58,296 nt of DNA from the IMG/VR virus record IMGVR_UViG_3300029240_000011; one strand, 5' to 3'. The DNA comes from a virus. The translations under genes were made by a program, and so were the position numbers. Under the pieces are notes generated by a model that had not been told where the DNA came from, made no database searches, and saw only the letters and a program-made list of their open reading frames with translations. Positions 1,708 through 37,106 of this stretch are shown here, piece by piece; within the stretch, counting starts at the first letter, position 1, and each line of letters opens with the position of its first letter.

Positions 1708-3252
1708 TTATGCTTCCGCCCGGCCTTCATAAGTCCCGCGGAATGCTCCATTATAGGTGTATTTAATGGATGTAACCAGAACCGTGCTCTGTGCGAACTG
1801 ATTTTCATTGCTCACCCTATCCAAAGCGTCCAATCTCGGATCTGCCCGGAATTCCCCGCTCAGAATGCGTCGGTTCTTCAAGTAGTTTCCGATCCATGTA
1901 GCAACCGTTTCAGCCCGTTCAGCCGATACCAGAGGATTGTTCACATCCTGCGTTTCTCCTGCGCTCCCAAAAGAAACCACCGCGGCTCCATCATTGATCG
2001 AAACGGCTTTCAATTGCTTGCTGAGGCTGATTTCAGAATTTTCATAGCTTCGGAACTGGTTTATTTCATAATCGGTAACTCCACTGGGCAGCGGTTCAAT
2101 ATGGTAAATACCTCCCCTGTCCTGATAGAACACACAACAGGCCGCGTTCGCTACATACTGCAGCACCTCGGCAATTGTATTTCCGTCCAGGCTTGCCCCC
2201 TCAGGAGCATGGATTGTTTCAAGTGACACATCAACGATCCACCGGTTGCTCCCGTCTTTCTGCTTTGGCAATGCAGCCTGTTCAAATGCAGCTGTCGCAA
2301 TCTCAAGAAGCGTTCCCTCAACCGGTCCGGAATAGGTATCCGTCATAAGTTCCTGCATATCGCGCGCCTTAAAGCTGGCTGTAATACCGTTTTGCGGCGT
2401 GTCCCATTCGCTCATGTAAAATGTTCCAGCCGGGATCCATTCAATAGCGCCGTCGATGAGATACCCATAACGTGCCGTTATCTCCTGCCGCTCCATTAAA
2501 TATTTCTCAGCGCCTTGCGGATTATCCGGGTTATACTGCCCGTTCAGATTGGAGATCGAAAACTCGATTTCAATGGTTGGAAGCGCAGCAGAAACGGGAT
2601 CAACCTCTATGGTGTGGCTGTAGTTCATCAGTTCGGTTTTGGAATATGTCTGTTTAATGCCAACCAGAATATTGGAAATCCTCGCTCTATGGTGGGGAAG
2701 GCACCATCTTGTAATCTGTATGACGATCTTGTCGTATTCCTCTATATCCAGATTTACAACAGAAGAAACGTTCCGGTTCCCCGTGACAGTGGCCGAAGCA
2801 GATACAGCTTCCCCACTGTATGCCGTCACAATAAAACTGTCTGCATACTCTCCATATGCCGTTCCCCAATCAATGGTTATGCCTGGAATTACACTGGTGA
2901 ACAACTTTGAAAACGAAATCGTAATGGTGGGAATACTCGAAAAGGAGCCATCGTCACCGCTGAGAACGTCCCCGATGTATCCGGTATCCCCATATGGCGG
3001 CGCATCCGGAAGAATGATCCGGTTGCTGCTCAGGAGCCAGCTGTTAAGCTCCAACGAAGCATATGGAAGCACGTTTTTATCTGTACCGTCCACAATCTGC
3101 GGCGTATTGGAAATTTCATCTGATCCGTTGTCACTGACCGATGCATCCTCCTGTGATTCCGGATCGCCTACATTCAAGATAACCTCAACATAGCTTTCCC
3201 CCACAAGATATTGCTCTTGGTTGTCTTTCCACTTCTGCGATACATTCTGCAT
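1708..3252 (-). CDS. tail-associated (Tal-like / minor structural) protein
   Basis: 514 aa, second gene after the tape measure gene. Call is based on position and size only. Confidence 0.55.
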   Translation of the reverse strand: MQNVSQKWKDNQEQYLVGESYVEVILNVGDPESQEDASVSDNGSDEISNTPQIVDGTDKNVLPYASLELNSWLLSSNRIILPDAPPYGDTGYIGDVLSGDDGSFSSIPTITISFSKLFTSVIPGITIDWGTAYGEYADSFIVTAYSGEAVSASATVTGNRNVSSVVNLDIEEYDKIVIQITRWCLPHHRARISNILVGIKQTYSKTELMNYSHTIEVDPVSAALPTIEIEFSISNLNGQYNPDNPQGAEKYLMERQEITARYGYLIDGAIEWIPAGTFYMSEWDTPQNGITASFKARDMQELMTDTYSGPVEGTLLEIATAAFEQAALPKQKDGSNRWIVDVSLETIHAPEGASLDGNTIAEVLQYVANAACCVFYQDRGGIYHIEPLPSGVTDYEINQFRSYENSEISLSKQLKAVSINDGAAVVSFGSAGETQDVNNPLVSAERAETVATWIGNYLKNRRILSGEFRADPRLDALDRVSNENQFAQSTVLVTSIKYTYNGAFRGTYEGRAEA

Positions 3253-3255
3253 AGC

Positions 3256-3621
3256 TTATACCTCGATCAGTGAAAGCTTCGCCCCTGTGTACCCTTTGAT
3301 ACTCCCATCCGGATTGCGAAGAAATACGCTGGCGGTTCTATCTCCAACATACATCGTCCGTGTTTCCCACTTGTTGGAATCTTGGCAAAAGAACGTTACA
3401 CTGTTGAAAAAACTTTTGTTAAATAGAGACATCACATTCGCCCAATCCTGAGCAGATATAAAATTCCAGCTCAGTTCCACCTTTGCAATTCCACTGCGGA
3501 TGACACTTGCAATGACATAGCCTTTCACGTTTCTTCCGCTGTCCACCACTGTGCTTGTTGTAGCACTGTATGTCGACGGTTCGGGGAGTGCCGTCCCTGC
3601 TACCGTTACCATTGAGCGCAT
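3256..3621 (-). CDS. small distal-tail-type protein
   Basis: 121 aa. ATG overlaps the tape measure stop (TAATG). Positional call. Confidence 0.5.
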   Translation of the reverse strand: MRSMVTVAGTALPEPSTYSATTSTVVDSGRNVKGYVIASVIRSGIAKVELSWNFISAQDWANVMSLFNKSFFNSVTFFCQDSNKWETRTMYVGDRTASVFLRNPDGSIKGYTGAKLSLIEV

Positions 3622-6600
3622 TACACGACACCCCCGATCAAAATATTCGCTCCGCTGCTGCGGCTGGCCTTGTCTACAGATTTCTTGAGCTGCTTCCCGT
3701 CCAAGTACACCCCAGACTTATTTAGGATGGCGCGCAGCAGCTCATTCTGCTCCTGCAAAAGAGCGTTTTGCTCTGCATTTGCATCGGCCACACCGTAGCG
3801 GATGCCTTCCACGATCTGCGCGTTGTTGGCAACCGCAGTTCGCTTCCCGATTTGTCCCACCAACTCAGGGCCAGCTTCCCGCGCCAAAAACAGTTCCCCT
3901 GTATCTGGGAATCCGCCGGAAGCATATCCCTTTGTGCTCCCAGATCCGCCCGAAACGTTTCGGGTCACAATCGTATGTACGGTTGTAATGTTGCGAGGAA
4001 TTGCATTAAGAGCACTGATAATGGACTGAATTTGCGCGTTGCTCTGTTTCGCCATTGTGCGGAAGTTATTTGTTGTCTGTGTGATAAAAGTCTTCAGTGC
4101 TGTGTCTACCGTCTCGATGGAGGCAAGGACATCCGTTTTAATGCTTTCCGTAGAAGTCTTTGTCTGGATGACAAATTCGGAATAATCGGTATTCATTGCA
4201 TCTGTCTGCACGCTGAACTGATCTGCCACCTGCTGGAACTGATCCGTGACACCAGTGAAATCAAAGGTCTTTTCCCAGTTGAGTCCTTCGCCATCGATTT
4301 TCGCATTGCGGATGGTTTCCAGCCGCGCAGCCTCTTCAAAGTCTCCGGATTCTTTCGCCGCGTTAATCAGTGCCATGTAGTTTGTACCGGGGTCATAGGA
4401 AATTCCATTGAACACCTTTTGCACGCTGTCCGCGATCCCCTGCGCCGCCGCTGTGATGGCGGGTGTGCTCTGAGAAATACCCTTTGCAATATCAGAACCC
4501 AAACTAACTCCAATGCCTTTAGCATCTCCAAAACCAATAATGTATCCTTGACGGGAATCAAGTCCTGATTCTTCAAATGCTTTAGAAGGCGAATGCGAAT
4601 CAATTCCTTCTTTGCTCCTAAATCCGGCAAGTAACAGTTGCGCAAAATCTTTACCTGTATCCCATAAAGAACCGAGTCCCTTTACAAGGCCATCAATAGC
4701 ATCTTGACCAAGCTGCTTCCACGTTTCGAGAGAAAAAAGAGGTTTCACTTTTTCATTGTACCAGTTCGAAATATTGGTTGTGATTTCGTTAAACTTCTTT
4801 GCAGCAAATTGGGGCAGCCAATCGCAAAATTCTTCCCAAGCATTCCCAATAAAATCCATTGCATTGTTAAAATTGGTTCGTACACTCTCAAGCCCTTCGC
4901 TTGTTAAAGTCTTTACATTCTCCCAAATAGGCGCCCAATCTTCTACAACTCCTTCGCAAAACAGATCCCAATGGGATTTCATCTCTCCGGTTTCCAAATC
5001 AATATATTTGGACATCTCACCAAGTTCAGTTTGCGCAGTAATTTTAGTCGCTTCAAATGTTTCTTCTGCTTTTGACTTCGCTGCTTCCAGATTACTTTCT
5101 GCCGCTCTCCTCATATCACCATATGCTGCATCTGTAATCAACCCGGCATCTTTTAGCTTTTGCAACTGAAAAATTGTGTCATTATATAGGGATTCAGCTG
5201 CAGCAACAGATTCATCTCTTGCAGAAGCAGCATTCTTTATAATCTCAGCTGCTTGCAACGCTGTTAGATCAGCAGCATTATCTTTCATGTTCTGCAAAAT
5301 AACATTTGCTTCTGTTTGGGTATCAGATAAATATTGAATTCCCGTATCCTTCATAGACGCTTGAATACTGGAAATTTGCGCTGCTTCTTCTGCAGTTAAA
5401 GCCCTATTCTCAGCAGCTGCCGCAGCAATAATTTTGTTAATTTCTGCTTCGCCATCTGTAACTGCCTTGATTTGCTCATCATATCCCCTGGCAACATTTG
5501 CACTGTATTCAGCGAATTTATCAGCCCCCAAAGCATTCCTCAACGGCTCCAAGTTTTTAAGCGCTTCGTTTTTATCAGCACTTAGAGAATTTACAATCGT
5601 GTCCGTGATACTGCTAAGCTGTGATTGAATATTAGAAACATCTGAGTCTGTGATAACTATATTTCCCCATTCAAGCGTTTTAATGGAGGAATCAAGTGTA
5701 TCCATTGCATCGATAAATGGTTCAACGTTATCTCTTGTCGCCGCGCTTATACTGTCTCCAAATAAGTCTACTGGCTGGATAATGTCCTCTGTCGCTTTTC
5801 CTATGGCTTTGATTCCGAGGACAATCCCCTCAATTGCCAGTCCAGCAGGGCCAAACAGAAGAAGCCCTCCCAGCGTAATAGCCAGATCGCTTACTCGAAT
5901 AAATCCACCTGTTGCATTCTCTAACGCTTCATTGATCCCTTTCCAGCCAAATTCAAAATCTGGGAAAACAGACGACACCAGATTTACAATTGGTTTCGTA
6001 AAATCACCTATAATTTCAATAATCCCCGCAATACCATGCTGAAACAGTTTACTTTTCGTTACCGTATCCAGAAGTCCAGCACCTAAAAGTGCAATTCCAG
6101 AAACTGTAGCAGCTATCGCTGCAATGCACGATGCAAGGCTTGCTCCGCCAGCCCCCATAATAGCTGCGCCGAGTCCGTTCTTGAAAACACCAGAAGTAAG
6201 AAGTTTAGCCAATTTCTCAATAGGTGCATAAACCGCCGGTACGAAGCCAACTAATGCAGGAAGTTTACTGCTCTTGTTTGCTCCTATCAATGCATTTTTT
6301 AACATCAATGCATTGACATATGCCTTTTTCAGTCCAGATGCTAATAGGCCCAAATTACCCAAAAGGGATGGCCCCAGTTTCCACGCAAGAAACCCAGCAG
6401 ATACCAGACCTATAATAGGGAGAATATCTTTGACCTTCTCTTTCAGCTCGTCCACTTGTCTGGTAATGTTTTTCAGCACAGATTCATCCCAAACACTATC
6501 CAGATCCCAGTCTTTTTCCCATCCAGCGCCGCCCACTGCACCACTGCCGCCGGAAGCGCCTGCCCCTGTATCGGGCTTAATAATATTTAATTCGTCAATC

Positions 6601-7997
6601 CCAAGCGTATAATCTTTCAGCTTCTTTGCCGCCGCTGCCGCATCGGACATGCCGTCTGCCATGTCATCTGCCGCCCCAGCGCCAAAATCAATCGCATTGC
6701 CCATGCCTTCCCAATCAGAGTAAGACCAGTCTGTCATCTTGAAGCCGAACAGCTTTGCCAGCGCCTGTGCGAATTCAGTCAAAACTTCTACGACCGCCTG
6801 CACAACTGGAATGATCTTCACCAAAGCAGGAATAAAAATACTTCCGATGGCGCGGGACAGCGACTTAAATTCCATATGTAGAATACGAAGTGCATTTGCT
6901 GGGGACTCCAGTGTTTTTGCCATATCTCCAATGACGCCCATGCGGGCAGACTGCTCCACAATCGCTGTATAGCGAATGATGGCTTTCTGCGCCTGTGTCA
7001 TCGTGCGGATCGACTGGTTTACACCGTGGTCATATGCTACCTGCTGAAGTGTTGCTTCATCCAGCGCATATCCGAGCCTGCGAAGCGGTTCCAATTCACC
7101 TGAAATACCGGACTGGACTTTCGCAAACGCGCCGTCACCAACCGCATCCAAACTGATATTGAAGAACGAAGAAATATCGTAGGAAAGTTCAGTCAGCCCT
7201 TTGGACAGGTTATAGGCCTGATCGTTTGCAAGGCCAAAGCCCTTTGCCATTGACATAAAAATGCCCTGGTTTCTCGTCCATTCAGAAATATCAATGCCGA
7301 GTTTGCTTTGCACCAGCTCTGCATATTCCATCGCTTCGCTGTAATATTCACCCATAGAAACGGAAAACAGATTCATATTTTCCACATAGGCGTTGATATT
7401 TGTAATAAACCCGCTTAGTACATCGGCAACAGCATTAATCCCAAATCCAAACAAAGTAAGGTTGGCAATGCTTTTCAAGCTGAATTTTCCGACGCTGTTA
7501 AAACTGTCTGCCGCCTTTTTATTGGATGCCGTCAAGCCGGAATTGCTTTGAATGATCTTCTGAATGCGGATTGGAAATGCTGCAAATCCCTTCGACACTT
7601 TTTCCATTTCCGCAGCCAACGGAGAAAGTGCAGCCGTTGCTTTCTTGATGGACTGAGCAAATTTATCCATATCCATTTGAGAAAGCTGACTCGAAATATC
7701 CGGAAGTTTTTTCAGTGCATTAATCGTAGAACTAAGGCCGCTCGACTTTTGCACCTCAGAAAGAGCTTTGAGTCCCCTTGCAATTTCAGATAGCTTTGTT
7801 CCGGAATTATCCGATCCAGACAAGGTGGTTTTCAGCCCGTCCAGCTGTTTCTTGATCGTGTTTAACCCGCGGACGCCACCGCTGGTGCTCGTTTTCAGTT
7901 CCTTCAGTGCCTCGGACAGCTTTTTGATATTTTCAGCCGCAGCATCGGACGATGCGCTGATCTCAATTTTGATGCTGTCAATTGTAGCCTCTGCCAT
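3621..7997 (-). CDS. tail tape measure protein (~1458 aa)
   Basis: Giant ORF. Alpha-helical A/E/K/L-rich N and C parts, glycine-rich TM-like middle. GGGGGA SD before ATG 7997. The track ORF extends to 8072 through the 48-bp repeat. Confidence 0.9.
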   Translation of the reverse strand: MAEATIDSIKIEISASSDAAAENIKKLSEALKELKTSTSGGVRGLNTIKKQLDGLKTTLSGSDNSGTKLSEIARGLKALSEVQKSSGLSSTINALKKLPDISSQLSQMDMDKFAQSIKKATAALSPLAAEMEKVSKGFAAFPIRIQKIIQSNSGLTASNKKAADSFNSVGKFSLKSIANLTLFGFGINAVADVLSGFITNINAYVENMNLFSVSMGEYYSEAMEYAELVQSKLGIDISEWTRNQGIFMSMAKGFGLANDQAYNLSKGLTELSYDISSFFNISLDAVGDGAFAKVQSGISGELEPLRRLGYALDEATLQQVAYDHGVNQSIRTMTQAQKAIIRYTAIVEQSARMGVIGDMAKTLESPANALRILHMEFKSLSRAIGSIFIPALVKIIPVVQAVVEVLTEFAQALAKLFGFKMTDWSYSDWEGMGNAIDFGAGAADDMADGMSDAAAAAKKLKDYTLGIDELNIIKPDTGAGASGGSGAVGGAGWEKDWDLDSVWDESVLKNITRQVDELKEKVKDILPIIGLVSAGFLAWKLGPSLLGNLGLLASGLKKAYVNALMLKNALIGANKSSKLPALVGFVPAVYAPIEKLAKLLTSGVFKNGLGAAIMGAGGASLASCIAAIAATVSGIALLGAGLLDTVTKSKLFQHGIAGIIEIIGDFTKPIVNLVSSVFPDFEFGWKGINEALENATGGFIRVSDLAITLGGLLLFGPAGLAIEGIVLGIKAIGKATEDIIQPVDLFGDSISAATRDNVEPFIDAMDTLDSSIKTLEWGNIVITDSDVSNIQSQLSSITDTIVNSLSADKNEALKNLEPLRNALGADKFAEYSANVARGYDEQIKAVTDGEAEINKIIAAAAAENRALTAEEAAQISSIQASMKDTGIQYLSDTQTEANVILQNMKDNAADLTALQAAEIIKNAASARDESVAAAESLYNDTIFQLQKLKDAGLITDAAYGDMRRAAESNLEAAKSKAEETFEATKITAQTELGEMSKYIDLETGEMKSHWDLFCEGVVEDWAPIWENVKTLTSEGLESVRTNFNNAMDFIGNAWEEFCDWLPQFAAKKFNEITTNISNWYNEKVKPLFSLETWKQLGQDAIDGLVKGLGSLWDTGKDFAQLLLAGFRSKEGIDSHSPSKAFEESGLDSRQGYIIGFGDAKGIGVSLGSDIAKGISQSTPAITAAAQGIADSVQKVFNGISYDPGTNYMALINAAKESGDFEEAARLETIRNAKIDGEGLNWEKTFDFTGVTDQFQQVADQFSVQTDAMNTDYSEFVIQTKTSTESIKTDVLASIETVDTALKTFITQTTNNFRTMAKQSNAQIQSIISALNAIPRNITTVHTIVTRNVSGGSGSTKGYASGGFPDTGELFLAREAGPELVGQIGKRTAVANNAQIVEGIRYGVADANAEQNALLQEQNELLRAILNKSGVYLDGKQLKKSVDKASRSSGANILIGGVV

Positions 7998-8026
7998 GTG
8001 CCAATTCCCCCTTTCGGTAAAATAAA

Positions 8027-8074
8027 TGGCACTTGGCACTGTTAGCTCCATCAGGGGAGAGGCACTTGGCACTG
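8027..8074. repeat. 48-bp element, perfect copy of 22031..22078 (two CAGTGCCAAGTGCC units on the minus strand)
   Basis: Read directly. Lies 30 nt upstream of the tape measure ATG. Confidence 0.9.
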
Positions 8075-8138
8075 TAGTAAAATTATGTTAGACTCAGATG
8101 TGTACTATATCAATCAAAAAGGGCTTTCTGTGTTATCG

Positions 8139-8432
8139 TCAATCGAAAATGCAGACAAAGAACGCGCCGAAACAGAAAAACAAAGACGCTATGAGAACAA
8201 AATATCGGCAGCTGGTATATTTGCTAATATTGCAGTCTTTTTTCTTGGGCTTCTCGTCGAACATTTTACCGGGATCTTCCAGGCTGCCCTTTCTGCATTT
8301 GGATAACTTTTCCTGATAGAGCGACCAAAACACATTAAATGTTTCGATTTGATGATGCGTATTATCAAAGAGACCGGATTCTATTGCAGCCAGAAGTGCC
8401 GCTCCTTTTTCTGTTATATAAAATTTCAACAA
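8139..8432 (-). CDS. hypothetical protein with wHTH-like N-terminus (FYITEKGAALLAAIESG) and hydrophobic C-terminus
   Basis: Track ORF. AGGGAGG SD before TTG start. Overlaps an antisense plus-strand ORF, 8085..8306. Confidence 0.45.
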   Translation of the reverse strand: MLKFYITEKGAALLAAIESGLFDNTHHQIETFNVFWSLYQEKLSKCRKGSLEDPGKMFDEKPKKKDCNISKYTSCRYFVLIASLFFCFGAFFVCIFD

Positions 8433-8811: not shown

Positions 8812-8885
8812 GCGCCTTCTTTCTAAAACTATAAAATCCCCGCCATCCGAATATATGGATAGCGGGGATCTCGATTATTAAATTG

Positions 8886-10358: not shown

Positions 10359-10395
10359 CAAAAAAATACCCTCCGTTCCAAAAGGAGCGGAGGGC
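10359..10395 (-). terminator. rho-independent terminator after the 10401..11270 gene
   Basis: CCCTCCG...CGGAGGG stem followed by TATTTTTTT on the minus strand. Confidence 0.7.
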
Positions 10396-12905: not shown

Positions 12906-13131
12906 GTATATACCGCCTTTCTAAAATGTTATTTTCACCTTATATGTTGACCCAGGGCAGGGGAGTAAGGTGGCACCTCCCTTTTCGGCCCGTCGGCCTA
13001 TCCCTGGCGTTCAACCAATGTTGTGAGAGACAGCGATATCCGTTTGCCTCTCAAATGGTAGATTCTAAATCAAAATCTCCGCTATCCATATATTCGGTTG
13101 TCAAGGTACAATTTATTGGAATGGATGGAAA

Positions 13132-13879: not shown

Positions 13880-14350
13880 TTAGACCTCTGAAAGCTTTGC
13901 GTCCCAAACAGGGGCATTGGTCGGCGTAATATAGGCCGTCGCTTCCAGCACATTGTTGACCTCCATACCGGGAAGTCCAAGCGGCGTAGGCTGGCCTGTA
14001 AAGAACAGATCCTTCGCAAGACCGGGCACATCAATACAGAACCACATTGCCTTCCCCTCTCCGGCCGCTTCGTCATACGCCTCAACCATAGTGCTCCATG
14101 CGGCCAGACTGTCTTTTGTCAAGTTGATTGTGAAGCCCAGCGCGCCGCCAAGATCTTTTAGGCCAGCAATGTAGGTTTTGTATTCCGTTTCTTTCAGGTT
14201 GGTTGTTTCCAGCGTATCCGGTTCAGGGTTCATTTCTGGGATTGCTTTCAGTTCCGGGACCTCAGTATAGCCTGTCGTAGGACGGGTGCCAGAGGTCGCT
14301 TCCACGGCGTACTTCATAGTTACGCCGGCAGTGCTCAGTTGAATGCTCAT
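13880..14350 (-). CDS. major tail protein (siphovirus type)
   Basis: MSIQLSTAGVTMKYAVEATSGTRPTTGYTEVPELKAIP... AAAGGAGG SD before ATG 14350. Position fits. Confidence 0.75.
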   Translation of the reverse strand: MSIQLSTAGVTMKYAVEATSGTRPTTGYTEVPELKAIPEMNPEPDTLETTNLKETEYKTYIAGLKDLGGALGFTINLTKDSLAAWSTMVEAYDEAAGEGKAMWFCIDVPGLAKDLFFTGQPTPLGLPGMEVNNVLEATAYITPTNAPVWDAKLSEV

Positions 14351-14378
14351 TTTAATTTCCTCCTTTAGATGGTTGGGA

Positions 14379-14408
14379 GGCACTTGGCACTATGGCACTT
14401 GGCACTGT
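14379..14408. repeat. third copy of the tandem AGTGCCAAGTGCC pair (units 2 nt apart)
   Basis: Read directly. About 30 nt upstream of the major tail ATG. Confidence 0.85.
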
Positions 14409-20506: not shown

Positions 20507-21964
20507 CTACTCACTTTGGGCTTCTTCAACATTCGATTGGACATGCTCTCCACGGGAAATTTCATCTCGCAAAGACCTTTGAAGTACAGCCTGCTGCTCT
20601 TCGTAGTAAGATTGAGAAATCCTGTACGCAGATTCTGGGTCGCTGAACAACCCACTGTACTGGAACGCCAGCTTCGGATGGATCTTGCTGTTGTTCAGCA
20701 TCTCCGCCAGAACCTGAGCCTTAGACTGAATGTTAGACAGGTTTTTCCGAGTGAACTCCGGCTTGATGTCGGACAGCTGCAAGCCCAAATCTCCAGTCTC
20801 CCGGCAGATATACAACACCAGCCGTAGAAACTCTCTCTCTGACCGCTCCCATGTCTTTTCCGTGTCCTTAGCCCGGCTCTCAGCAGCAGACCAGCCGTCC
20901 CGGTAAATGACCGCCTGACCGGTGTCGCTTGTAGAGGAACCGCCGTTCCGGTTCGGCATCCCGCAGATGGTTAGATAGGCGTCTTCCAAATCGTCCACAA
21001 CAGTCTGCGTGTTGGCCTGATTCAGCTCAGAGGCAATGCGGTAGACTTTGGCTTCCATACCAGGAACACCCTTAATTTCAATCGCCATGCCTCCAGAAGC
21101 AAGGGATCTGTATGCGTTCTTGTCAATTTCGCAATTCTGGAACACATCAAAAGCGTTCACGAAATCCTGGATACTGTCCAGCCGGTTAGACTCAATCATA
21201 TTGATGGCGTTCAGGATAGGGATGACCGGCTCAAAGGCCCCCATTCGTGCATCGTTGTTCACATACTCCACAATGGGGATGTATGGTATGGTGCGGGTCT
21301 CTTGCTTCGTGATCTTACCGTTCTGTACCTCGAAGTACCACTCCGGGGTATATACACAAAAATAAGGCTGACACTCTTCGTCTACTTGTTCTATCACACC
21401 CGCGACCTTTTTCTGCCCGATTCCGCTGTGATAGATGCAGAACGCAGCCCTCGGATCAAGGGTGTAAATGGATACGGGGGAACCATCTTCTTCTCCTGCT
21501 TCATCAGGGAGAACCATACGTACCGCCACACCGCAAATGTGCATCCAGTCTGCCAGTTCCTTATCGAGAGTGTCCTTGCTCTCGGCCCGCATATACTCAT
21601 TAAGTGTGTTTACACTGGCGGAAATATCATCCTCTCCGCCGTTGGATACATAGCGGATCGGGCCATCCAGCAGATAGGCCGTCTTGAAGGTCACGATCTC
21701 GTTCGCACGGTTAATCATCACCTTGTTGTTAATCTCCGGGCGGACGATTTTATTTTTCAGGCGGATGTCCTGTTTCCCTCTGTAATAATCATACAGGTAG
21801 GCTGTTTCTACCCTGTTGATACGATGCACTGCCAGCGCTTTTCCCAGAACATCCACCACATTTTCCGGGGTGACTCGCTTTTTCGAGGTGTAGATTTTAC
21901 GCCGACCCGTCAAACCATTGACCGGCCACTCAGATAAAGCTCGAACAGTATCGTTTTCAGTCAC
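20507..21964 (-). CDS. portal protein (SPP1 gp6-like)
   Basis: ~485 aa lying between TerL and MuF. GGAGG lies 7 nt before GTG 21964. The track ORF runs upstream into the 48-bp repeat. Confidence 0.8.
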   Translation of the reverse strand: MTENDTVRALSEWPVNGLTGRRKIYTSKKRVTPENVVDVLGKALAVHRINRVETAYLYDYYRGKQDIRLKNKIVRPEINNKVMINRANEIVTFKTAYLLDGPIRYVSNGGEDDISASVNTLNEYMRAESKDTLDKELADWMHICGVAVRMVLPDEAGEEDGSPVSIYTLDPRAAFCIYHSGIGQKKVAGVIEQVDEECQPYFCVYTPEWYFEVQNGKITKQETRTIPYIPIVEYVNNDARMGAFEPVIPILNAINMIESNRLDSIQDFVNAFDVFQNCEIDKNAYRSLASGGMAIEIKGVPGMEAKVYRIASELNQANTQTVVDDLEDAYLTICGMPNRNGGSSTSDTGQAVIYRDGWSAAESRAKDTEKTWERSEREFLRLVLYICRETGDLGLQLSDIKPEFTRKNLSNIQSKAQVLAEMLNNSKIHPKLAFQYSGLFSDPESAYRISQSYYEEQQAVLQRSLRDEISRGEHVQSNVEEAQSE

Positions 21965-22030
21965 CTTGCCACCTCCAAACAAACAAAAAAGCGCCAACAA
22001 GAATCCGGGAAATGAATCTCGGAAACTCAT

Positions 22031-22078
22031 TGGCACTTGGCACTGTTAGCTCCATCAGGGGAGAGGCACTTGGCACTG
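22031..22078. repeat. 48-bp element, perfect copy of 8027..8074
   Basis: Read directly. Sits in the leader of the portal gene. Confidence 0.9.
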
Positions 22079-22237
22079 GTTTATTTCAGTTTTCCTCAAA
22101 GGAAGAACTATTTTTATGTTTTTATGACATCCTTTGCAATATGGATAAACAGTTCCATTTGCATCGTCTTCTACTTCCATAAGCTTTCTTCGGATACCGG
22201 CGGCGGCACATATTGGGCAAAAAACATTTACCTTCAA
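22055..22237 (-). CDS. small zinc-ribbon protein (Mu Com-like pattern CPxC...CxxC)
   Basis: 60 aa, VFCPICAAAG...YPYCKGCHKNIKIV. TTG start. The 3' end runs into the repeat. Confidence 0.45.
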   Translation of the reverse strand: MKVNVFCPICAAAGIRRKLMEVEDDANGTVYPYCKGCHKNIKIVLPLRKTEINQCQVPLP

Positions 22238-22263
22238 TCAACCGCCCACCTTTCCTGAAAATT

Positions 22264-22337
22264 TGGAGCAGCGCACGGGTCTTGAACCCGTACCATCAGC
22301 TTTGAAAGCTGGTATGCGCCAATTACACCAGCGCTGC
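22264..22337 (-). tRNA. tRNA with anticodon UCA (opal suppressor type), CCA encoded
   Basis: Hand-folded cloverleaf: 7/7 acceptor pairs, 5/5 T stem with loop TTCAAGA, 4-bp D stem with GG in the loop, anticodon loop TT-TCA-AA, 4-nt variable loop, discriminator T. Confidence 0.8.
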
Positions 22338-22501
22338 AAATAGCCCTCGTAACAGGGCTATGTTGTGTGATTATCAGGATTTGCACACCGTCCTATACAT
22401 GCGCCATTTGTTTTCTCCCACTATACAGCGCAAGATACAATGGGAAAAGTGTCTCTTCCACAGCCAGCAAACCAGATTGGTTTATTTCCGCTTTTGCGGA
22501 T

Positions 22502-22578
22502 TGGTGGCACGGGGTGGGCTTGAACCGCCTTGTGCTCCCATCTGAGAGCCTATGCCCATCCATTCGGACATCCGTACC
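22502..22578 (-). ncRNA. tRNA-like element / tRNA pseudogene (acceptor, D and T arms present; non-canonical anticodon arm)
   Basis: GGTACGG/CCGTGCC acceptor stem + A + CCA. D stem GTCC/GGGC. T stem has one C-A mismatch. The anticodon region folds as GCTCTC-agat-GGGAGC, or with an 8-nt loop. Confidence 0.55.
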
Positions 22579-22654
22579 GTATTTGGGCCTCCGGCGATGT
22601 ACCGTCGGCCCGCTTACTCTCTCCCGAAATACTATATATTGTATTTCTTTTTTA

Positions 22655-22683
22655 ATTATACCACAATATAATGTGTTTGTAAA
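22655..22683 (-). promoter_or_regulatory. strong sigma-70-type promoter TTTACA-17-TATAAT (TG-extended) driving the tRNA locus
   Basis: Read directly. It is a near-duplicate of 31466..31494. Confidence 0.7.
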
Positions 22684-22714
22684 CCAATTTATGAGAAAAA
22701 ACACAAGATACTTT

Positions 22715-24337
22715 TTAAAACGGGCGTCGGAATACCTCCACCTTGTTCCCTTCTAGTTGCTGGACATACTCAGCAAACATTGCCAAAGCATCAGGAACAT
22801 CGTCATGTTTATTTTTACCTGCCATCGTATACCCGCAAAGGAAGTTGAGCATCCTTCGATATTCCTTGCCCTTCTTTATGACAGAGTTGTCTTTGAACAG
22901 CACATGGTCTTTCACCCACGGCGAGTTCACTATGATTTTTGTTTCCTTTTGCTGTGTCGTATATTTTGTGGTGATTTTCGCTATACCGCCAGCTTCTTTA
23001 ACTTCTTTCTGAACTTTTTCTGCTACTTTCCCACCAGCGCTGTTGCTTTCAAACTGGCCCATTTGAGCCTTATGCTGAAGGAGCTTTGACACCAGCCGCG
23101 CCTCTACAACCTCTGGATTGCTGTTGTCACATACCACGTCTTCGCAATAGAAGTCATTTCCGTACTGATAGCAAATTGGCATGACGCAGTAGTCAGTTCC
23201 CTTGTCTTTCGTGTCGCAAACGAACAGAATAGCGTCTGGCTTACCATCAGGAAGCTCAAAGTAGCGCCGTAGCTCATCTTCGTTGTAGAGCTGCCCTTCA
23301 CGCTCGATGGGTTGCGTCATGTAAAGTGCTCTCCATGATGCATCATCCATGACATCTCTCTGATTGTGATAGAATGCCGTGGTAAACCCAAGCCCATACG
23401 GATAATCAAAATTACTCTCATCGTTTTCATCCAGAGCAGGTAGGTGGATAAACTCTGCCAGTGGGTCTTCTGCATGGGCTAGTTCAAGTCGGTCAATGGG
23501 GTCATGCAGCGTCCATGGAGTTTGGACAAGGAGCTGGACGCAATCGCCAATCATTCTTTGCATCAGATCGGTATAATACTGTTGCCAGAGTTTATCCATC
23601 CGTTCTTTGCTCATTGCAGATTCAATATCAGGTACAAGGTCATCTGCTACCAGAAGATTAGAGGCACGAACTTTGCCCGCGTTACCAGATCCAATGGACG
23701 AAAACTCAAAGGTCTCAAACCGCTTTCGTTTTCCAAGATCAATTCGCATGTCCTGGGCGTTTGTTTTGCAAACTTGAGCAGATGGAAAAATATCTTTCCA
23801 CAAATACTCCCCTTTGGGGTCTAACATCCGCCCAACTTCTTCATAAGCCCCACGTAGGAATGAGTTTGAGTGCGAACCCATCAGAATGCTTAAATCTGGA
23901 TTCTTTAACCCCTCCATCACCATGAACATCAATTCAATGGTGGTCTTCCCGACGCCTGGGGGAGCCATAACACCCAAAATGCGTATCTTCCGTTCAGATA
24001 GCCGCTGCATGGCCTTGACAACAGGAAGTAGCTGCTTTCTGCGTGGCATATAAAACTTCTTTTTCGGCTCTCTATCCCACTCAGCATATCTTATCGCCGC
24101 ATCAAAATCATACGGTGCATCAAACAGCAGACTTCGCTTATTCAGATCAAACATCTTGAAGCTGTTCTGCTCTTTGGCATATTTGGCCGATAGGCGGCGG
24201 ACTTCCTTATTAACGCTGTGGGCTTCTTCAAAATTTTCGGATTCATACAATCTACATACATCAAACAAATCTTGCAACGCAGAGGCATCAGATAGATCTC
24301 TCTCTCTTGCTTTCTTAATCAGTTCATCAAGCTTCAC
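22715..24337 (-). CDS. terL: terminase large subunit
   Basis: 540 aa. Walker A MAPPGVGKTT. LLVADDLV Walker B-like motif. GTG start with a GGAGG SD. Confidence 0.85.
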   Translation of the reverse strand: MKLDELIKKARERDLSDASALQDLFDVCRLYESENFEEAHSVNKEVRRLSAKYAKEQNSFKMFDLNKRSLLFDAPYDFDAAIRYAEWDREPKKKFYMPRRKQLLPVVKAMQRLSERKIRILGVMAPPGVGKTTIELMFMVMEGLKNPDLSILMGSHSNSFLRGAYEEVGRMLDPKGEYLWKDIFPSAQVCKTNAQDMRIDLGKRKRFETFEFSSIGSGNAGKVRASNLLVADDLVPDIESAMSKERMDKLWQQYYTDLMQRMIGDCVQLLVQTPWTLHDPIDRLELAHAEDPLAEFIHLPALDENDESNFDYPYGLGFTTAFYHNQRDVMDDASWRALYMTQPIEREGQLYNEDELRRYFELPDGKPDAILFVCDTKDKGTDYCVMPICYQYGNDFYCEDVVCDNSNPEVVEARLVSKLLQHKAQMGQFESNSAGGKVAEKVQKEVKEAGGIAKITTKYTTQQKETKIIVNSPWVKDHVLFKDNSVIKKGKEYRRMLNFLCGYTMAGKNKHDDVPDALAMFAEYVQQLEGNKVEVFRRPF

Positions 24338-24493
24338 TATCTATCAATCCTCCAAAATATTCTTTCTCTGCGTTTAGTCTTGCATTTTTTGCTTCTTCTA
24401 AATTATCGAAGTATCCGAACAATATCACTTTTTTATCTCTTGAAATTTCTCTCTATCAAAGTGGTCGTGCCCGTAATGTACATATCTGCGCAT
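24327..24493 (-). pseudogene. split small ORF: SD-ATG 22-codon ORF ending A_AAA_AAG-TGA, then a -1 frame encoding an AP2-like remnant (ILFGYFDNLEEAKNARLNAEKEYFGG)
   Basis: Own translation of both frames. GGAGG SD before ATG 24493. Heptamer at 24428..24434. Confidence 0.45.
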
Positions 24494-24495
24494 AT

Positions 24496-24957: not shown

Positions 24958-25623
24958 TCAGGCATTATTTTGATCCAGTCCATACTTTTCTAACAACTCC
25001 CTCTTTTTCGAATCATACGCGGACTTTGCACTTTCAATAGACAGAAAACCCGTTTTTACCCAGCGTTCTCCAGAAACCTGAACGGCTACTCTGTATGTCT
25101 TGCCATTCTTTTCCAACATAACGCCACGCACACCGGTTTTGCTTCTTATCATCGCCTTATCTGACTTCACCGCCGCAATATCCGCACGTTTTGTTCCGCC
25201 CGTTTCTACGAACTTGGCCTTAACAGCAAGATCAGAGTATTTCTTCATTTCCTCGCTTTTGTATTGCTGGCAGCCGCATCCTTTTGGCTTATTCCTTATC
25301 GTCTGCGCGGGGAACTCTTTTTCAGATCCGCACATGGAACACTTGCACAGATACAGCGCGTTCCTGTGCTTGTCAATTCCGGTTCGCTTTAATACAGTCA
25401 GCGCACCATAGATTTTTCCGGTAAGATCTGCTGTTTTCTCACGCTTCTTGCATCCACAGTCTTTCTTTGGCGATTTTTTATCGGTTAACCGTTGGCCCTC
25501 CACGACGCACTCATTTCCGCATCTGCGACATATGCACCGCCAAAGCATGGCGCCTTTGGGCGAGCGCCCAGCGGGTTCTATTACTGTCAGTTCCCCAAAC
25601 CTTTGGCCGATGAGGTCTTTCAT
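24958..25623 (-). CDS. homing-endonuclease-like DNA-binding protein (two Zn-ribbon modules + C-terminal AP2 domain)
   Basis: LIGQRFGELTV, WRCICRRCG...DCGC, CKCSMCG...GCGC, then TGVRGVMLEKNGKTYRVAVQVSGERWVKTGFLSIESAKSAYD. Confidence 0.6.
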   Translation of the reverse strand: MKDLIGQRFGELTVIEPAGRSPKGAMLWRCICRRCGNECVVEGQRLTDKKSPKKDCGCKKREKTADLTGKIYGALTVLKRTGIDKHRNALYLCKCSMCGSEKEFPAQTIRNKPKGCGCQQYKSEEMKKYSDLAVKAKFVETGGTKRADIAAVKSDKAMIRSKTGVRGVMLEKNGKTYRVAVQVSGERWVKTGFLSIESAKSAYDSKKRELLEKYGLDQNNA

Positions 25624-25793
25624 CTTACTCACCAAAACCACCCTCTTTTTGTTTTGTGCGGCGATTTTTCAATGCGCCTTTTTTTCACGGGATTTTAGAA
25701 AGCTCTCCTTTCCAGCACATACCACTGGATCTTACTAATCCCAATCTGCTTACAGGCGGCCTCCACTGTGATGGAGCCGTCTTTTTTTATTTT

Positions 25794-26939
25794 TTAGGAT
25801 ATTGTCGTTTTTGGCCTACCAGCGGTAACTTTCGGCGTGGTTAATGCCTCGTATGGTGTCATGCCCATTTTCTTAATGCGGTAAGATACAAAAGAAAAGC
25901 TCAATCCGTATTGCTCGCACCAATCAATGGCCGACTTCGTTTCTCCATTAATCTCCCATTCCAGTTTCCGTTTCCTGCTCCGCTTTTTGGTTGGTCTTGC
26001 GGTAAATGTATATTTCGGATGTTGATTGTTTGCTTGCGCCTTTGCATCAGCCCACCTACAATTATCTGGTGAGTACCCTTTGTCGTTATCAATTCGGTCT
26101 ATTGATAAATTATCGGCATACCCATGCGACAGAGCCCAATCCCTAAACGCAAACACATCCTCTCTCCATTCATCACAAATGTCTATTCCTCGCCCACCGT
26201 ATGTTTTCCACGCATGGTTTTTGTGGTTATAACACCGCTCTTTCATTCCGCTCCAAATTCTGTATATCCTATCTTTTGATAATCCATGTGTACTAATAAG
26301 GGACTTATGATGAATACAATCTGCTTTTCCACAACTCTTTATTGTCCCATTTTCAAAAAGCACCGGATTTACTTCAACTGATCTACCGCAATCACATCTG
26401 CACACAAACATCTTTTTGCGTTTTCCAACAACGGTTAGATGGTATTTTCGAACACCTCTCCATTTTTCTATATCAAACTTTCCTCGGTTTGTTTGGCAAA
26501 TACAAACCATAGGATTTTCTCTCAACAAAAACTTTGGAGCGTGGTAATTCTCTGCACCACAAAAGGTACATCTCGTTTTCCAGCCGAATCCCGTTTTATA
26601 TCCAATTATCTCCCAGCATCCAATTTTCTGCCCAATCCACTTTGGGTTGCTTGGCAAATTTTCTCTTTTAATCCTTGCGGTTTCCTTTTCCGCTGCTATT
26701 CTTTTTCTTGTTTCACACCCACAAATCCCTTGATTCTTCCCTTTCGCATAATCTTTCCCGTTATGCGTGACTTTCTTCCTTCCGCACTTCTGACAGGTTA
26801 GCTCCCACATCTGTTTATGTGTTTCCCAATCATACCAAACACGGGTAACTTCAAAATCGCCGTACACTTTCCCGATTCTGTCAGAATAAAACTGATCCTG
26901 CATTTCAAGAACCTGTTTCTTGTTTGCCTCGTTAAACAT
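25794..26939 (-). CDS. homing-endonuclease-like protein (three Zn-ribbon modules + IDRIDNDKGYSPDNCRW module + HTH)
   Basis: 381 aa. Paralogous to 19737..20498. ATG overlaps the recombinase stop. Confidence 0.55.
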   Translation of the reverse strand: MFNEANKKQVLEMQDQFYSDRIGKVYGDFEVTRVWYDWETHKQMWELTCQKCGRKKVTHNGKDYAKGKNQGICGCETRKRIAAEKETARIKRENLPSNPKWIGQKIGCWEIIGYKTGFGWKTRCTFCGAENYHAPKFLLRENPMVCICQTNRGKFDIEKWRGVRKYHLTVVGKRKKMFVCRCDCGRSVEVNPVLFENGTIKSCGKADCIHHKSLISTHGLSKDRIYRIWSGMKERCYNHKNHAWKTYGGRGIDICDEWREDVFAFRDWALSHGYADNLSIDRIDNDKGYSPDNCRWADAKAQANNQHPKYTFTARPTKKRSRKRKLEWEINGETKSAIDWCEQYGLSFSFVSYRIKKMGMTPYEALTTPKVTAGRPKTTIS

Positions 26940-27597
26940 CCCCCTTTTTTACCCCCTTTTTGTTTCGGCTCTCCAGCGGAGGCAACCCGTGTTCCGCCCG
27001 ATACTTCGCAACTGCCTTATAGTAGGTGTTTGGACGCAACCCCAACTTTTCCATCGCCCACTTGTTCGTCCTCCCATCAGACAGAACTTCTTTGTAGGCT
27101 GCATCGAAAGCCACCTCATCTATTTCAATCGGCTTTCTTCCTTTATATGCGCCTCTGTCCTTAGCAAGAGCAATCCCTTGGGCCTGCCGCTCATGCGTGT
27201 TGATTCTTTCCTTCTCAGCCACATACGAAAGAACTTTCAATACAATATCAGCAATCAGCGTTCCTGTGAGATCGTTCGTTTTCCTGGTATCCAAAATGGG
27301 CATATCCAGCACAACAATATATGCTCCGATCTCCTTCGTGATATGTTCCCACTGTTTTCCAGTCTCAGTGTAATTTCTTCCGAGCCGGTCAAGGCTGCAC
27401 ACAAAAACCGTATCACCCTTTCGGATTACAGTCATCATCGCGTTCCATTTGTCCCGGTTGTAGTCCCGCCCGCTCTCTTTATCAATGAAGATGTACCGCT
27501 CCGGCACTCCGGCCTCTTTCAGCATTTTAGTCTGCCGCTCCTCATTTTGGTCTTTCGAGGACACCCGCGCATATCCAACACAAATGCTCTCAGCCAT
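26932..27597 (-). CDS. small serine recombinase (resolvase/invertase family)
   Basis: MAESICVGYARVSSKDQNEERQ...VFVCSLDRLGRN catalytic-domain motifs plus a C-terminal HTH. AAGGAGG SD before ATG 27597. Confidence 0.85.
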   Translation of the reverse strand: MAESICVGYARVSSKDQNEERQTKMLKEAGVPERYIFIDKESGRDYNRDKWNAMMTVIRKGDTVFVCSLDRLGRNYTETGKQWEHITKEIGAYIVVLDMPILDTRKTNDLTGTLIADIVLKVLSYVAEKERINTHERQAQGIALAKDRGAYKGRKPIEIDEVAFDAAYKEVLSDGRTNKWAMEKLGLRPNTYYKAVAKYRAEHGLPPLESRNKKGVKKGDV

Positions 27598-27627
27598 CCC
27601 ATCTCGCCTCCTTTTGTTTGCAAATTC

Positions 27628-27657
27628 ATTATAACAAATAATTTTGTTGTTTGTCAA
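27628..27657 (-). promoter_or_regulatory. consensus promoter TTGACA-18-TATAAT for the recombinase operon
   Basis: Read directly. Confidence 0.65.
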
Positions 27658-27874
27658 CATGTTTTTTGCTTTTTTTAATTTTTCTGTGGTAGGGGGGCTC
27701 AGGTGGTGGGTGGCCGCCCTGTCCTATCCCCCTGGGGTGCCCGGCGGCCCGTTATCCTTGTAATACCTTGATTATCTGGGGTATACCCATACCAAACAGC
27801 CCACATATATATAATAATAATTTGGCACAAATCGCAACTACTCAAAAAATAAATAAAAATATTTGTAAATTCTG

Positions 27875-29224: not shown

Positions 29225-29752
29225 TCACTCCTCCACCACCACAGACCCGGCGATCCGCTCTTCAAGCTGTTTCTGGTCTGGAGAGTCGCCGAGGGGCTGA
29301 TTCGGGGTGAGAACCAGGTCTTGAACATCTTTCATGCCATAGAAGTTCTTAGACCTAAAAATATACGTAGTCTCCGGGATTTTGCGTCCAAGCACCAATT
29401 CTGCGTCGATATTTGATAAAATTTGTTTCGCTTTTTTTATCATGTTCGACCTCGCGGAACTGCATCCATTCCCATTTTCCCATTCCCAAACAGTAGACCG
29501 AACAGCGCCCAATGCAAGGCACATCTTCTCAACGGTAGGGATTTCCCCGGTTCTTCCACACTCTGCAAAGAACTCATTCAGTCTGTCTGCACACTCATCA
29601 TCAGACTTAACAATCTGCTTATTAAACCACTTGTAAGAGTTCCTGACGATTTGAGCGATTTCTTCTTTCTTTGCTGTGGTAGTCGCTTCAATGGAGGCTG
29701 ACTTCGACCCTCTTTTCCTGACGGGCTGTGTCATAGTCACATCCTGCTCCAT
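29225..29752 (-). CDS. terS: terminase small subunit
   Basis: ...FFAECGRTGEIPTVEKMCLALGAVRSTVWEWENG...TYIFRSKNFYGMKD, the TerS HTH + oligomerisation pattern. Start at MEQDV (the track ORF is longer). Confidence 0.7.
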   Translation of the reverse strand: MEQDVTMTQPVRKRGSKSASIEATTTAKKEEIAQIVRNSYKWFNKQIVKSDDECADRLNEFFAECGRTGEIPTVEKMCLALGAVRSTVWEWENGNGCSSARSNMIKKAKQILSNIDAELVLGRKIPETTYIFRSKNFYGMKDVQDLVLTPNQPLGDSPDQKQLEERIAGSVVVEE

Positions 29753-29759
29753 AGTCGCA

Positions 29760-29978
29760 TCATTCTTGCTCAGAGTTGTCACCTCCGTTATCTTTTCTCC
29801 AAATCCATTTTGCTTTTCTGCGAACAGAAACGACCTCACCGTTTTGACAATAAATTACATCATCATCAGACTTATATCTCTTTCCGTATGCCCAATTTTC
29901 AATCTGGACTCCAAATGTATGCGGTACTCCGATATGTGAAAGTTGTTTCCTTATGTCTTTGGGCAAGATAAATCCCAT
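29760..29978 (-). CDS. hypothetical protein (72 aa)
   Basis: Track ORF. Confidence 0.5.
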   Translation of the reverse strand: MGFILPKDIRKQLSHIGVPHTFGVQIENWAYGKRYKSDDDVIYCQNGEVVSVRRKAKWIWRKDNGGDNSEQE

Positions 29979-36856: not shown

Positions 36857-37106
36857 AAAGCTTATCTCCTTTTCTACACATTCTCCTTTTTGTATCGATG
36901 CAATTTGTGCATTCATCCTTTTTACACTGCAAGCACATGCGGATCTGCTTCGGCGTATCGTACAAAACCGCCTTTTCTTTTAGCCAAATGCCGTCAGCTT
37001 TCAAGATACGACGCACCGTCTCGGCAGAACACCCCAAAACAGCGCCAATCTCCGCGGTGCTTTCATGTCGAAGGTAACGCTTCGCGATCTCACTTCTCTC
37101 CGACAT
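36846..37106 (-). CDS. small HTH (sigma region-4-like) protein with Cys-rich tail
   Basis: SEIAKRYLRHESTAEIGAVLGCSAETVRRILK. Confidence 0.5.
   Translation of the reverse strand: MSERSEIAKRYLRHESTAEIGAVLGCSAETVRRILKADGIWLKEKAVLYDTPKQIRMCLQCKKDECTNCIDTKRRMCRKGDKLCEM

Follow-up and report, generated by a model that had tools for sequence, protein, structure and literature searches.

A conserved two-unit leader element in front of late genes in temperate siphophages of gut Clostridia

The HutP-hut and TRAP-trp leaders of Bacillus carry, beside a terminator, repeated copies of a short single-stranded RNA motif that is recognized by a protein. In phage P2, the small Cys4 protein Ogr acts at four late promoters. 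The Com protein of phage Mu, a zinc-finger protein of 62 aa, is a translational activator of the mom mRNA (PMC6483171), and conAn is a bipartite processive antitermination system with a large RNA element and with cassettes embedded in long operons (PMC8191782). RinA, ArpU, and LtrC are late activators of Gram-positive phages that operate at the DNA level (PMC3753634). Almost nothing is known of how late genes are controlled in phages of strictly anaerobic gut Firmicutes. Here we describe a leader element found in IMG/VR virus record IMGVR_UViG_3300029240_000011 (below, the window: the whole stretch of DNA analysed, 58,296 nt), where a 48-bp repeat precedes virion genes. The best explanation is that this repeat is the window's version of a cis-acting RNA leader of late (virion) genes that is conserved within a clade of temperate siphophages that infect gut Clostridia. 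The element is real and conserved, and it is absent from Rfam and from the literature searched.

Anatomy and distribution of the leader

The first-pass annotation of the window reported a perfect 48-bp repeat, TGGCACTTGGCACTGTTAGCTCCATCAGGGGAGAGGCACTTGGCACTG, and the copies at 8027-8074 and 22031-22078 were confirmed to be identical. A search with the 14-mer CAGTGCCAAGTGCC, allowing up to two mismatches, gave six matches in the window, all on the minus strand, starting at 8028, 8061, 14379 (TAGTGCC..., one mismatch), 14394, 22032, and 22065. The six units read (C/T)AGTGCCAAGTGCC, every one on the gene strand. Shuffled controls predict 0.48 matches, and none of 100 shuffles reached six. A looser search for paired CCAAGTG cores yielded the same three sites alone, here called A, B, and C. 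The reported spacing also held, the units being 33 nt apart in both 48-mers and 15 nt apart (a 2-nt linker) at 14379-14408.

PHROG matches bear out the earlier placement of the sites in leaders of late genes: the portal (20507-21964) lies behind site A, the tape measure (3621-7997) behind site B, and the major tail gene (13880-14350) behind site C. These genes and TerL (22715-24337, PHROG match) are all on the minus strand, so the units form the sense strand of the leaders. Two sites stand at the late-gene side of islands, as had been noted: site B behind a low-GC island (~8.1-13.1 kb, about 5 kb long) that contains Ant/Rha-like genes, and site A behind the tRNA locus. Unit 2 ends 28-29 nt from the start codon at sites B and C and 66 nt from it at site A. 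The features are collected in Table 1.

Table 1. Coordinates of the leader sites and of the associated gene and promoters in the window. ORF, open reading frame; SD, Shine-Dalgarno sequence.
Feature	Position	Strand	Remarks
Site A (portal leader), unit 1	22065..22078	-	CAGUGCCAAGUGCC; overlaps the final codons of the zinc-ribbon ORF
Site A, linker	22046..22064	-	small hairpin CUCC-CCUGAU-GGAG and tail CUAAC
Site A, unit 2	22032..22045	-	last six bases AGUGCC (22037-22032) begin the terminator stem
Site A, intrinsic terminator	21977..22037	-	stem AGUGCCAAUGAG...CUUGUUGGCGCU (22037-21990), then UUUUUGUUUGUUU
Site B (tape-measure leader), unit 1	8061..8074	-	found in the 14-mer search
Site B, linker hairpin	8042..8060	-	same sequence as the site A linker
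Site B, unit 2	8028..8041	-	GUGCCA pairs with UGGCAC immediately before the AUG
Site B, 'anti-unit' UUGGCACAUGGCAG	7991..8004	-	contains the tape-measure start codon (ATG 7997-7995)
Sigma-70-like promoter, moderate, TTGATA-17-TAACAT	8085..8113	-	ends ~10 nt before site B unit 1
Site C (major-tail leader), unit 1	14394..14407	-	10 nt behind the stop of the upstream head-tail gene
Site C, unit 2 UAGUGCCAAGUGCC	14379..14392	-	2-nt linker to unit 1
Site C, SD pairing	14359..14380	-	CCUCC (14380-14376, overlaps the unit 2 end) with SD GGAGG (14363-14359)
Cys4 zinc-ribbon ORF, 60 codons	22055..22237	-	TTG start, SD GGTGG; candidate trans-acting factor
Near-consensus sigma-70 promoter TTTACA-17-(TG)TATAAT	22655..22683	-	just past the TerL stop

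The unit pair recurs in related phages, for which a search had been proposed. The exact two-unit pattern is present at 26 IMG/VR loci and a slightly degenerate one at at least 112; the site counts that follow are drawn from the matches listed for the latter, which comprise 111 unique site contexts. When the first gene behind each site was clustered, TerL accounted for 63 sites, the portal for 52, the major tail for 23, the tape measure for 22, and a DNA methyltransferase for four, and a few sites stand before genes outside these five groups. The pairs are in sense orientation throughout, typically with four sites per genome. The window lacks the TerL site, which is kept in a near-identical relative (contig 118325, L222); at the corresponding position (24338-24495) it carries a broken AP2/HNH-like fragment, and the N-terminus of its TerL has been replaced. 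The names on homologous proteins point to gut Clostridia (Anaeromassilibacillus, Ruminococcus, human faecal Caudoviricetes).

Across these relatives, a core of 7-10 nt is strictly conserved and the flanks have all diverged. The invariant cores are GUGCCAAGUG in unit 1 and CCAAGUGCC in unit 2, with variable inner halves (e.g., AGUGUU-uaa-UUACCA). The core-to-core spacing is either 14-15 or 29-35 nt, and the long linkers always contain a small hairpin, represented by ten different sequences, with stems such as CUCC/GGAG, CCGC/GCGG, GGCC/GGCC, UCCGGGC/GCCUGGA, GCCCG/CGGGC, GCUGUGC/GCGCAGC, and GAAAGUUGC/GCAAUUUUC. In all ten, the stem begins 1-3 nt past unit 1 and leaves a single-stranded tail of 7-10 nt. 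As judged by shuffling, each linker has a 1-11% likelihood of such geometry, the joint value of ~2e-14 assuming independence and being somewhat overstated. The 14-15-nt class has no linker hairpin. A hairpin insert of this kind means that the units stay adjacent in RNA, while in duplex DNA they would be 1.5-2 helical turns apart.

At 86 of 87 unique sites, the last heptamer of the pair (AGUGCC) forms the 5' base of a strong hairpin. It is paired at all 33 TerL, 30 portal, three methyltransferase, and 12 tape-measure sites and at eight of the nine major-tail sites; a U tract follows at 32, 29, 3, 0, and 8 of them, respectively. The feature of an intrinsic terminator, a hairpin plus a U tract, is thus seen at 72 of the 75 sites in front of TerL, portal, major-tail, and methyltransferase genes, with stems of 12-20 bp before the U tracts, and many of the 3' arms include the SD sequence. 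At the tape-measure sites, the 3' arm abuts the AUG in 12 of 12 cases and reads GGCAC in nine of them. More than 30 different stems close on AGUGCC/GGCACU. In a covariation set of 32 different stems with 12 nt per arm, 92.7% of the cells were paired versus 34-46% when the partners were slid, and compensatory, both-sided changes were found at seven of the 12 positions, including AGUGCU/AGCACU and G-U variants in the unit itself.

In the window, the site A leader folds with dG of -50.1 kcal/mol (z = -5.1), with U5GU3GU3 behind the stem, and its terminator is followed by the SD GGAGGUGG and the GTG start at 21964. In the minimum free energy (MFE) fold of site B, unit 1 pairs with GGCAC.UGGCA across the tape-measure start codon. 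The segment GGCACAUGGCAG (8002-7991), which spans this codon, is complementary to a whole unit at 10 of 12 positions, and the plus strand near 7990 scores as a near-unit. Sites B and C have no U tract and do not qualify as intrinsic terminators. Site C is the single major-tail exception, retaining only the CCUCC-SD pairing; the U-tract terminator that it has lost is kept by eight of the nine major-tail sites. On this evidence, we hold with considerable confidence that the anatomy is as described, i.e., a conserved leader with two cores and a terminator or start-masking hairpin.

The sites gave no match in Rfam 15 (whole window at the gathering threshold; 21900-22800 at E ≤ 1), and neither did any TerL, portal, major-tail, or tape-measure site of five relatives at E ≤ 1. 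In the literature searched, the 12-mer occurs only in two unrelated human primer lists, keyword searches find no description of the motif, and no near-DNA match exists among the deposited phages of INPHARED. In the genome collection, the sole matches listed from the degenerate pattern are (AGTGCCA)n-type heptamer microsatellites from unrelated phyla, mostly high-GC ones, and give no indication of the host. These and related heptamer arrays (L027-L146) are intergenic, some are paired with inverted arrays, and some abut an SD, e.g., upstream of a groEL-like gene in L146; the tandem arrays are probably unrelated microsatellites.

The first-pass annotation had treated absence of the motif from relatives with like gene order as evidence against a role. 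Such absence was found in four distant relatives (portal 36-49% identical), namely MT835537, MT836094, Clostridium phage Maintenon, and Dulem virus 39, and we read it as indicating a clade-specific system rather than a chance motif. Several other identities were rejected. A pac or cos site is ruled out by the four dispersed sites per genome, a trans-acting antisense RNA by the lack of any GGCACUUGGCAC-like sequence elsewhere on the gene strand of the window, and the resemblance of plus-strand TGGCAC to sigma-54 elements by the wrong spacing and strand on inspection.

A candidate factor encoded beside the portal sites

The Cys4 zinc-ribbon ORF lies between the tRNA and site A and runs into the first unit. 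When every ORF of the window was compared by tblastn with the motif-bearing loci, it proved the most widespread after TerL, with the consensus MKxxIFCPxCAAAGIxRKLMEVDSxAxGxIYPYCKGCKKNxxIEL. An ORF with the CxxC...CxxC pattern ends beside unit 1 at 48 of the 48 portal sites with enough upstream sequence: 40 end 2-31 nt before the unit, seven of the window type run 19 nt into it, and one ends 78 nt before it. The reverse test started from the protein, a relative of which is encoded at 199 IMG/VR loci. Among the best 80 of these, 77 are followed on the same strand by a core pair, which is no more than 60 nt away in 46 and beyond an insert of 0.3-1.3 kb in 31; the opposite strand never carries a pair, and most loci have a second pair ~2.1 kb upstream, at the TerL site. 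Three of the unit-less relatives (MT835537, MT836094, and Maintenon) have no zinc-ribbon ORF upstream of the portal. In one lineage (L297-L326, ~3160-4400), the insert between the zinc-ribbon gene and the portal units starts with TTACGGGGCGAAAGCCCCG... and looks structured.

In most lineages, a sigma-70 promoter (10-12 of 12 matches) stands between the TerL stop and the zinc-ribbon gene, which implies a transcription unit made of this promoter, tRNAs or other RNAs, the zinc-ribbon gene, and the units with their terminator. In the window, a strong promoter (22683-22655) comes first, then a structured RNA that has no annotation, a tRNA whose anticodon is UCA, and finally, before site A, the Cys4 ORF (22055-22237). 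The promoter would drive the structured RNA, tRNA(UCA), and the zinc-ribbon gene in a unit predicted to end at the site A terminator.

Two RNAs of this unit deserve separate mention. The one at 22430-22650 (minus strand), directly behind the promoter, is ~200 nt long and highly structured (dG -83 kcal/mol); its end resembles the T-arm and acceptor of a tRNA (GGTTCAAGCCCACCCCGTGCCACCA), and neither Rfam nor ARAGORN gives a match. The tRNA at 22264-22337 (minus strand), labelled SeC by ARAGORN, would read UGA, and there is no sign of TGA recoding linked to it, as 20 of 45 long ORFs terminate in TGA.

The zinc-ribbon protein has no match in Pfam (E ≤ 1), PHROG, NCBIfam, or PDB sequences and no tblastn match in deposited phages. 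Its AlphaFold model, with a predicted local distance difference test (pLDDT) value of 79, is a small beta zinc ribbon, for which Foldseek returns nothing significant; the top hits (E > 3) are ribosomal-protein chains ~50 residues long from entries for bacterial ribosomes. Two other proteins had been put forward as factors and are not supported. The helix-turn-helix (HTH) ORF 36846-37181 has an HTH/sigma-r4 match and no relative in IMG/VR, and ORF 51694-51945 has no family match. Synteny thus suggests the zinc-ribbon protein as the factor, an assignment that we make tentatively. A bolder proposal, to which we attach somewhat less weight still, is that it may recognize the two CCAAGUG cores, open four or more checkpoint leaders (TerL, portal, tail tube, and tape measure, plus a methyltransferase), and be the founder of a new class of proteins that bind specific RNA sequences as antiterminators and translation activators.

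Probable RNA-level control, its alternatives, and the genomic context

In the relatives, the gap between unit 2 and the start codon measures 17-35 nt (TerL sites) or 21-30 nt (major-tail and tape-measure sites). No conserved -10-like element was found at a fixed distance past unit 2 (<0.5 bit, 52 non-redundant sites). At least four lineages do have near-consensus sigma-70 promoters, 10-80 nt before unit 1. In the L158 type (TTGTCT-17-TGcTATAAT), the -10 ends 10 nt before unit 1, so that the RNA would start at the units; the promoter is 50-80 nt upstream in the L155 type (TTGGCA-17-TGgTATAAT), 31 nt in L211 (TTGAAA-17-TGcTATAAT), and 24 nt in L197 (TACACA-17-TATAAT). Matches of at least 10 of 12 are present in nine of 61 non-redundant upstream regions versus 1.9 expected. 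Promoters in this position mean that the units are transcribed. Repeats resembling GCAGAACGATA, in numbers that vary, separate TTGGCA-17-TGgTATAAT from unit 1 in L155, L160, L162, and related loci. The linker hairpins, the obligatory overlap with the stem, the short distance to the start, the lack of a -10, and the upstream promoters point to an element acting as RNA, not as DNA. The scanned ORFs of the window include no phage RNA polymerase, sigma factor, RinA/ArpU-type gene, or known late activator.

The mechanism that we propose is as follows. The leader would present two single-stranded recognition units joined by 2-3 nt or by a spacer hairpin, and the heptamer AGUGCC of unit 2 would double as the base of a hairpin serving as a terminator (TerL, portal, and most major-tail sites) or as a start mask (tape-measure sites). 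Without the factor, transcripts arriving from the early operon, from promoters of embedded tRNAs or morons, or from dedicated sigma-70 promoters would terminate or stay untranslated at each checkpoint. An RNA-binding factor, for which synteny suggests the ~50-aa Cys4 zinc-ribbon protein encoded immediately upstream of the portal sites, would grip the emerging units and the AGUGCC arm, block the hairpin, and expose the SD or AUG, and polymerase and ribosomes would go on. The checkpoints would thereby insulate the virion genes from readthrough of the early operon and from cargo promoters (tRNAs, the zinc-ribbon unit, morons), and islands with their own promoters and terminators could be tolerated inside the late operon without uncoupling it. 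Of the roles considered in the first-pass annotation, an antitermination signal that re-couples late transcription is the one now favoured, since at nearly all sites a terminator or start-masking hairpin has the last heptamer as its 5' arm. We regard factor-dependent antitermination with start unmasking as the probable function, with less assurance than the anatomy itself.

Several points weigh against this proposal. The stem arms were picked from MFE folds, which makes the pairing counts given above partly circular. The zinc-ribbon protein shows no detectable homology to any RNA-binding family in these searches, and its link to the units is synteny within one clade and hence not phylogenetically independent. 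Its gene lies behind a strong promoter that may be active in the lysogen, which is not easily reconciled with a role in switching on late genes. In Dulem virus 39, a Cys4 ORF of another kind adjoins the portal, and there are no units. Finally, in the L003 type, the tape-measure units are immediately preceded by a moron gene and two strong terminators devoid of units, which leave no space for a sigma-70 promoter. A purely local mechanism could not pass these terminators, so either processive antitermination or initiation at the units would be needed.

The first of these two options is a variant of our proposal, in which unit RNA and factor would load onto the polymerase, as in nut systems, and make it resistant to terminators kilobases further on. 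We consider it possible, with distinctly less confidence than the general proposal. It agrees with the strong unit-less terminators that lie between the major-tail and tape-measure sites, at 10369-10385 and 8833-8872 in the window and two in L003, as well as with units standing at the extreme 5' end of promoter-proximal leaders, and bipartite systems of RNA and protein that permit cassettes in long operons provide a precedent (conAn, PMC8191782). One of these terminators, CCCCGCUAUC...GGCGGGG with a U tract, is conserved directly upstream of the tape-measure units in the L003, L180, and L232 types (L003:6110-6245); its homologue in the window (8833-8872, minus strand) is ~760 nt upstream of site B, with inserted genes between. 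On the other hand, a fully processive system would have no need of a site repeated before four gene blocks, each overlapping its own terminator. There is no boxA/boxB-like structure, and the sigma-70-like promoters just before the tape-measure units (window and L197 type) could supply the transcripts.

Initiation at the units belongs to a DNA-level reading, offered as one option in the first-pass annotation, in which the units would be a late promoter or be bound as duplex by an activator (e.g., by the zinc-ribbon protein in the manner of P2 Ogr). In its detailed form, transcription would start inside the hairpin past unit 2, and late mRNA lacking the 5' arm would escape the terminator that stops upstream transcripts. 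The strict orientation, the position before late gene blocks, and the order seen in the L003 type (terminator, terminator, units, gene), a classic terminator-then-promoter layout, all fit, and P2 Ogr exemplifies small Cys4 activators of several late promoters. We nevertheless consider this reading unlikely. A spacing that changes from 14-15 to 29-35 nt does not suit a -35/-10 pair or a fixed activator position, and the additional length is always a structured hairpin. No -10 is conserved, the units end only 17-35 nt from the start codon at TerL, major-tail, and tape-measure sites, and the consensus sigma-70 promoters directly before unit 1 place the units at about +3 to +30. If the mRNA lacked the units, there would be no point to the base pairing between AGUGCC and the region of the AUG that all 12 tape-measure sites conserve, and the absence of a Pfam match for the zinc-ribbon protein at E ≤ 1 includes Ogr/Delta.

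Negative control would reverse the sign of the proposed mechanism: factor binding would strengthen termination or block translation, as with TRAP, and keep virion genes silent in the lysogen. The zinc-ribbon gene and the tRNAs, placed behind a near-consensus sigma-70 promoter, do resemble cargo expressed in a lysogen. Nonetheless, the terminators are strong unaided (stems of 12-20 bp with U tracts) and a factor sitting on the 5' arm would oppose the hairpin, which leaves this version with very little probability.

The two 48-mers of one genome evolve in concert, both linkers reading 'cccctgat' in the window and 'cccttgat' in contig 118325; as judged from these sequences, the identity of the two copies reflects within-genome concerted evolution. 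The least probable reading of all turns this into the main role, making the units mainly conserved boundary sequences (recombination linkers) or parts of a mobile terminator cassette, which would promote module exchange and island insertion with no regulatory factor; the flanking of islands and the TerL-type leaders standing before unrelated genes inserted directly behind them in L178 and L203 speak for it, and homology exchange leaves unexplained why the heptamer is a terminator arm in more than 30 stems, why the linker hairpins share their geometry, and why a core of 7-10 nt stays strict amid diverged flanks. Of the recombination linker suggested in the first-pass annotation, what survives is a likely by-product, i.e., recombination at conserved boundaries with insertions behind the leader.

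If the proposed mechanism is true, it would explain how embedded cargo is tolerated in mosaic late operons, and the design with a new zinc-ribbon class, if real, would allow phages of gut Clostridia to carry tRNA, ribozyme, and moron islands, each with promoters and terminators of its own, inside the virion operon. The proposal is directly testable: the element is compact (26-48 nt), its core is defined, it comes with its own terminator, and there is a candidate partner of ~50 aa. The element would serve as an annotation signature of late-gene boundaries in metagenomic phage contigs and could yield a small orthogonal protein-RNA switch of transcription and translation for Clostridia.

As for the remaining context, the window resembles a complete temperate siphophage, with a tyrosine integrase (47278-48351, plus strand), a CI-like repressor (46079-46420, plus strand), and replication and DNA genes (Erf, NinB, SSB, DnaB-type, and DNA methyltransferases). 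A weak terS match (29225-29839) is separated from TerL by HNH endonucleases (24958-25641 and 25794-26939) and a resolvase (26932-27660). On the opposite strand, an ORF of 73 codons (8085-8306, plus) starts 11 nt from site B; it has a hydrophobic C-terminal half and no clear SD. These phages are unusually rich in non-coding RNAs. Above the gathering score, Rfam reports a RAGATH-31 RNA at 51575-51629 (minus strand); an int-alpA RNA (Rfam, 12938-13008, minus strand; also in L006) heads the 5-kb island just upstream of the Ant-like gene, and a twister-sister ribozyme and a skipping-rope RNA lie near TerL leaders of relatives (L240:960-1040; L222:1449-1589).

Comparison with described systems

By the tests applied, the leader belongs to none of the known systems considered here. 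With RinA/ArpU/LtrC and P2 Ogr, it shares the role of a switch for packaging and morphogenesis genes. Those activators bind DNA upstream of a promoter, the RinA type at a single site before terS, whereas the present sites are in leaders, downstream of promoters. Among the ORFs at 24.4-31.1 kb, no RinA, ArpU, LtrC, or DUF1492 match was found; they match DUF551, HNH endonucleases, a resolvase, a terS-like protein, or nothing. Ogr/Delta differ further in that the zinc-ribbon protein lacks a Pfam match and that direct repeats on one strand take the place of a dyad site upstream of a sigma-70 -10.

The arrangement in three lineages, a sigma-70 promoter followed by units and terminator within 10-100 nt before the first packaging gene, is like lambda PR'-tR' with Q, in which the phage antiterminator opens a terminator close behind a constitutive late promoter, and so is the logic of a short leader that is terminated unless the factor is present. 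Q, however, binds DNA and paused polymerase at one site, while some of the sites described here have no nearby promoter (major-tail, 10 nt after a stop codon), and no match to the Q family was found. Lambda N-nut, HK022 put, and conAn likewise have a cis-acting RNA near the 5' end of a long operon with internal terminators and cassettes, at several sites per genome. Unlike nut with its boxA and boxB hairpin, the leader has direct repeats, no boxB, and an optional linker hairpin; unlike the large structured RNAs of put and conAn2, it comprises 26-48 nt of mostly unstructured repeats (for conAn, as judged from the published description, the difference in size is large); and unlike all of these, each site overlaps its own terminator. 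The scanned window ORFs contain no match to families like that of the arginine-rich lambda N protein.

The HutP and TRAP leaders are similar in having repeated short single-stranded motifs, in two blocks with a spacer, upstream of or overlapping a terminator arm, where protein binding would decide whether the hairpin forms. The motifs differ (CCAAGUG versus UAG/GAG triplets), as do the targets (a phage late-gene regulon versus a metabolic operon), and TRAP promotes termination, the opposite of the role proposed here. Scanned ORFs of the window show no Pfam match to HutP or TRAP (TrpBP).

Mu Com acts on a hairpin loop of one gene, whereas the present leader has two single-stranded direct repeats at four or more sites per genome, most of them on terminators. 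The zinc-ribbon protein has no Pfam match at E ≤ 1, including the Com family PF10122, and an hhalign comparison of 47 zinc-ribbon with 18 Com sequences gave a probability of 38% with the zinc knuckles out of register. In common with Com-mom, the candidate factor is a small phage Cys4 zinc protein, and the RNA target is followed at once by a stem that hides the start site of a late gene. The tape-measure sites come closest to this arrangement, with a predicted pairing of AGUGCC and GGCAC by the AUG in 12 of 12 cases.

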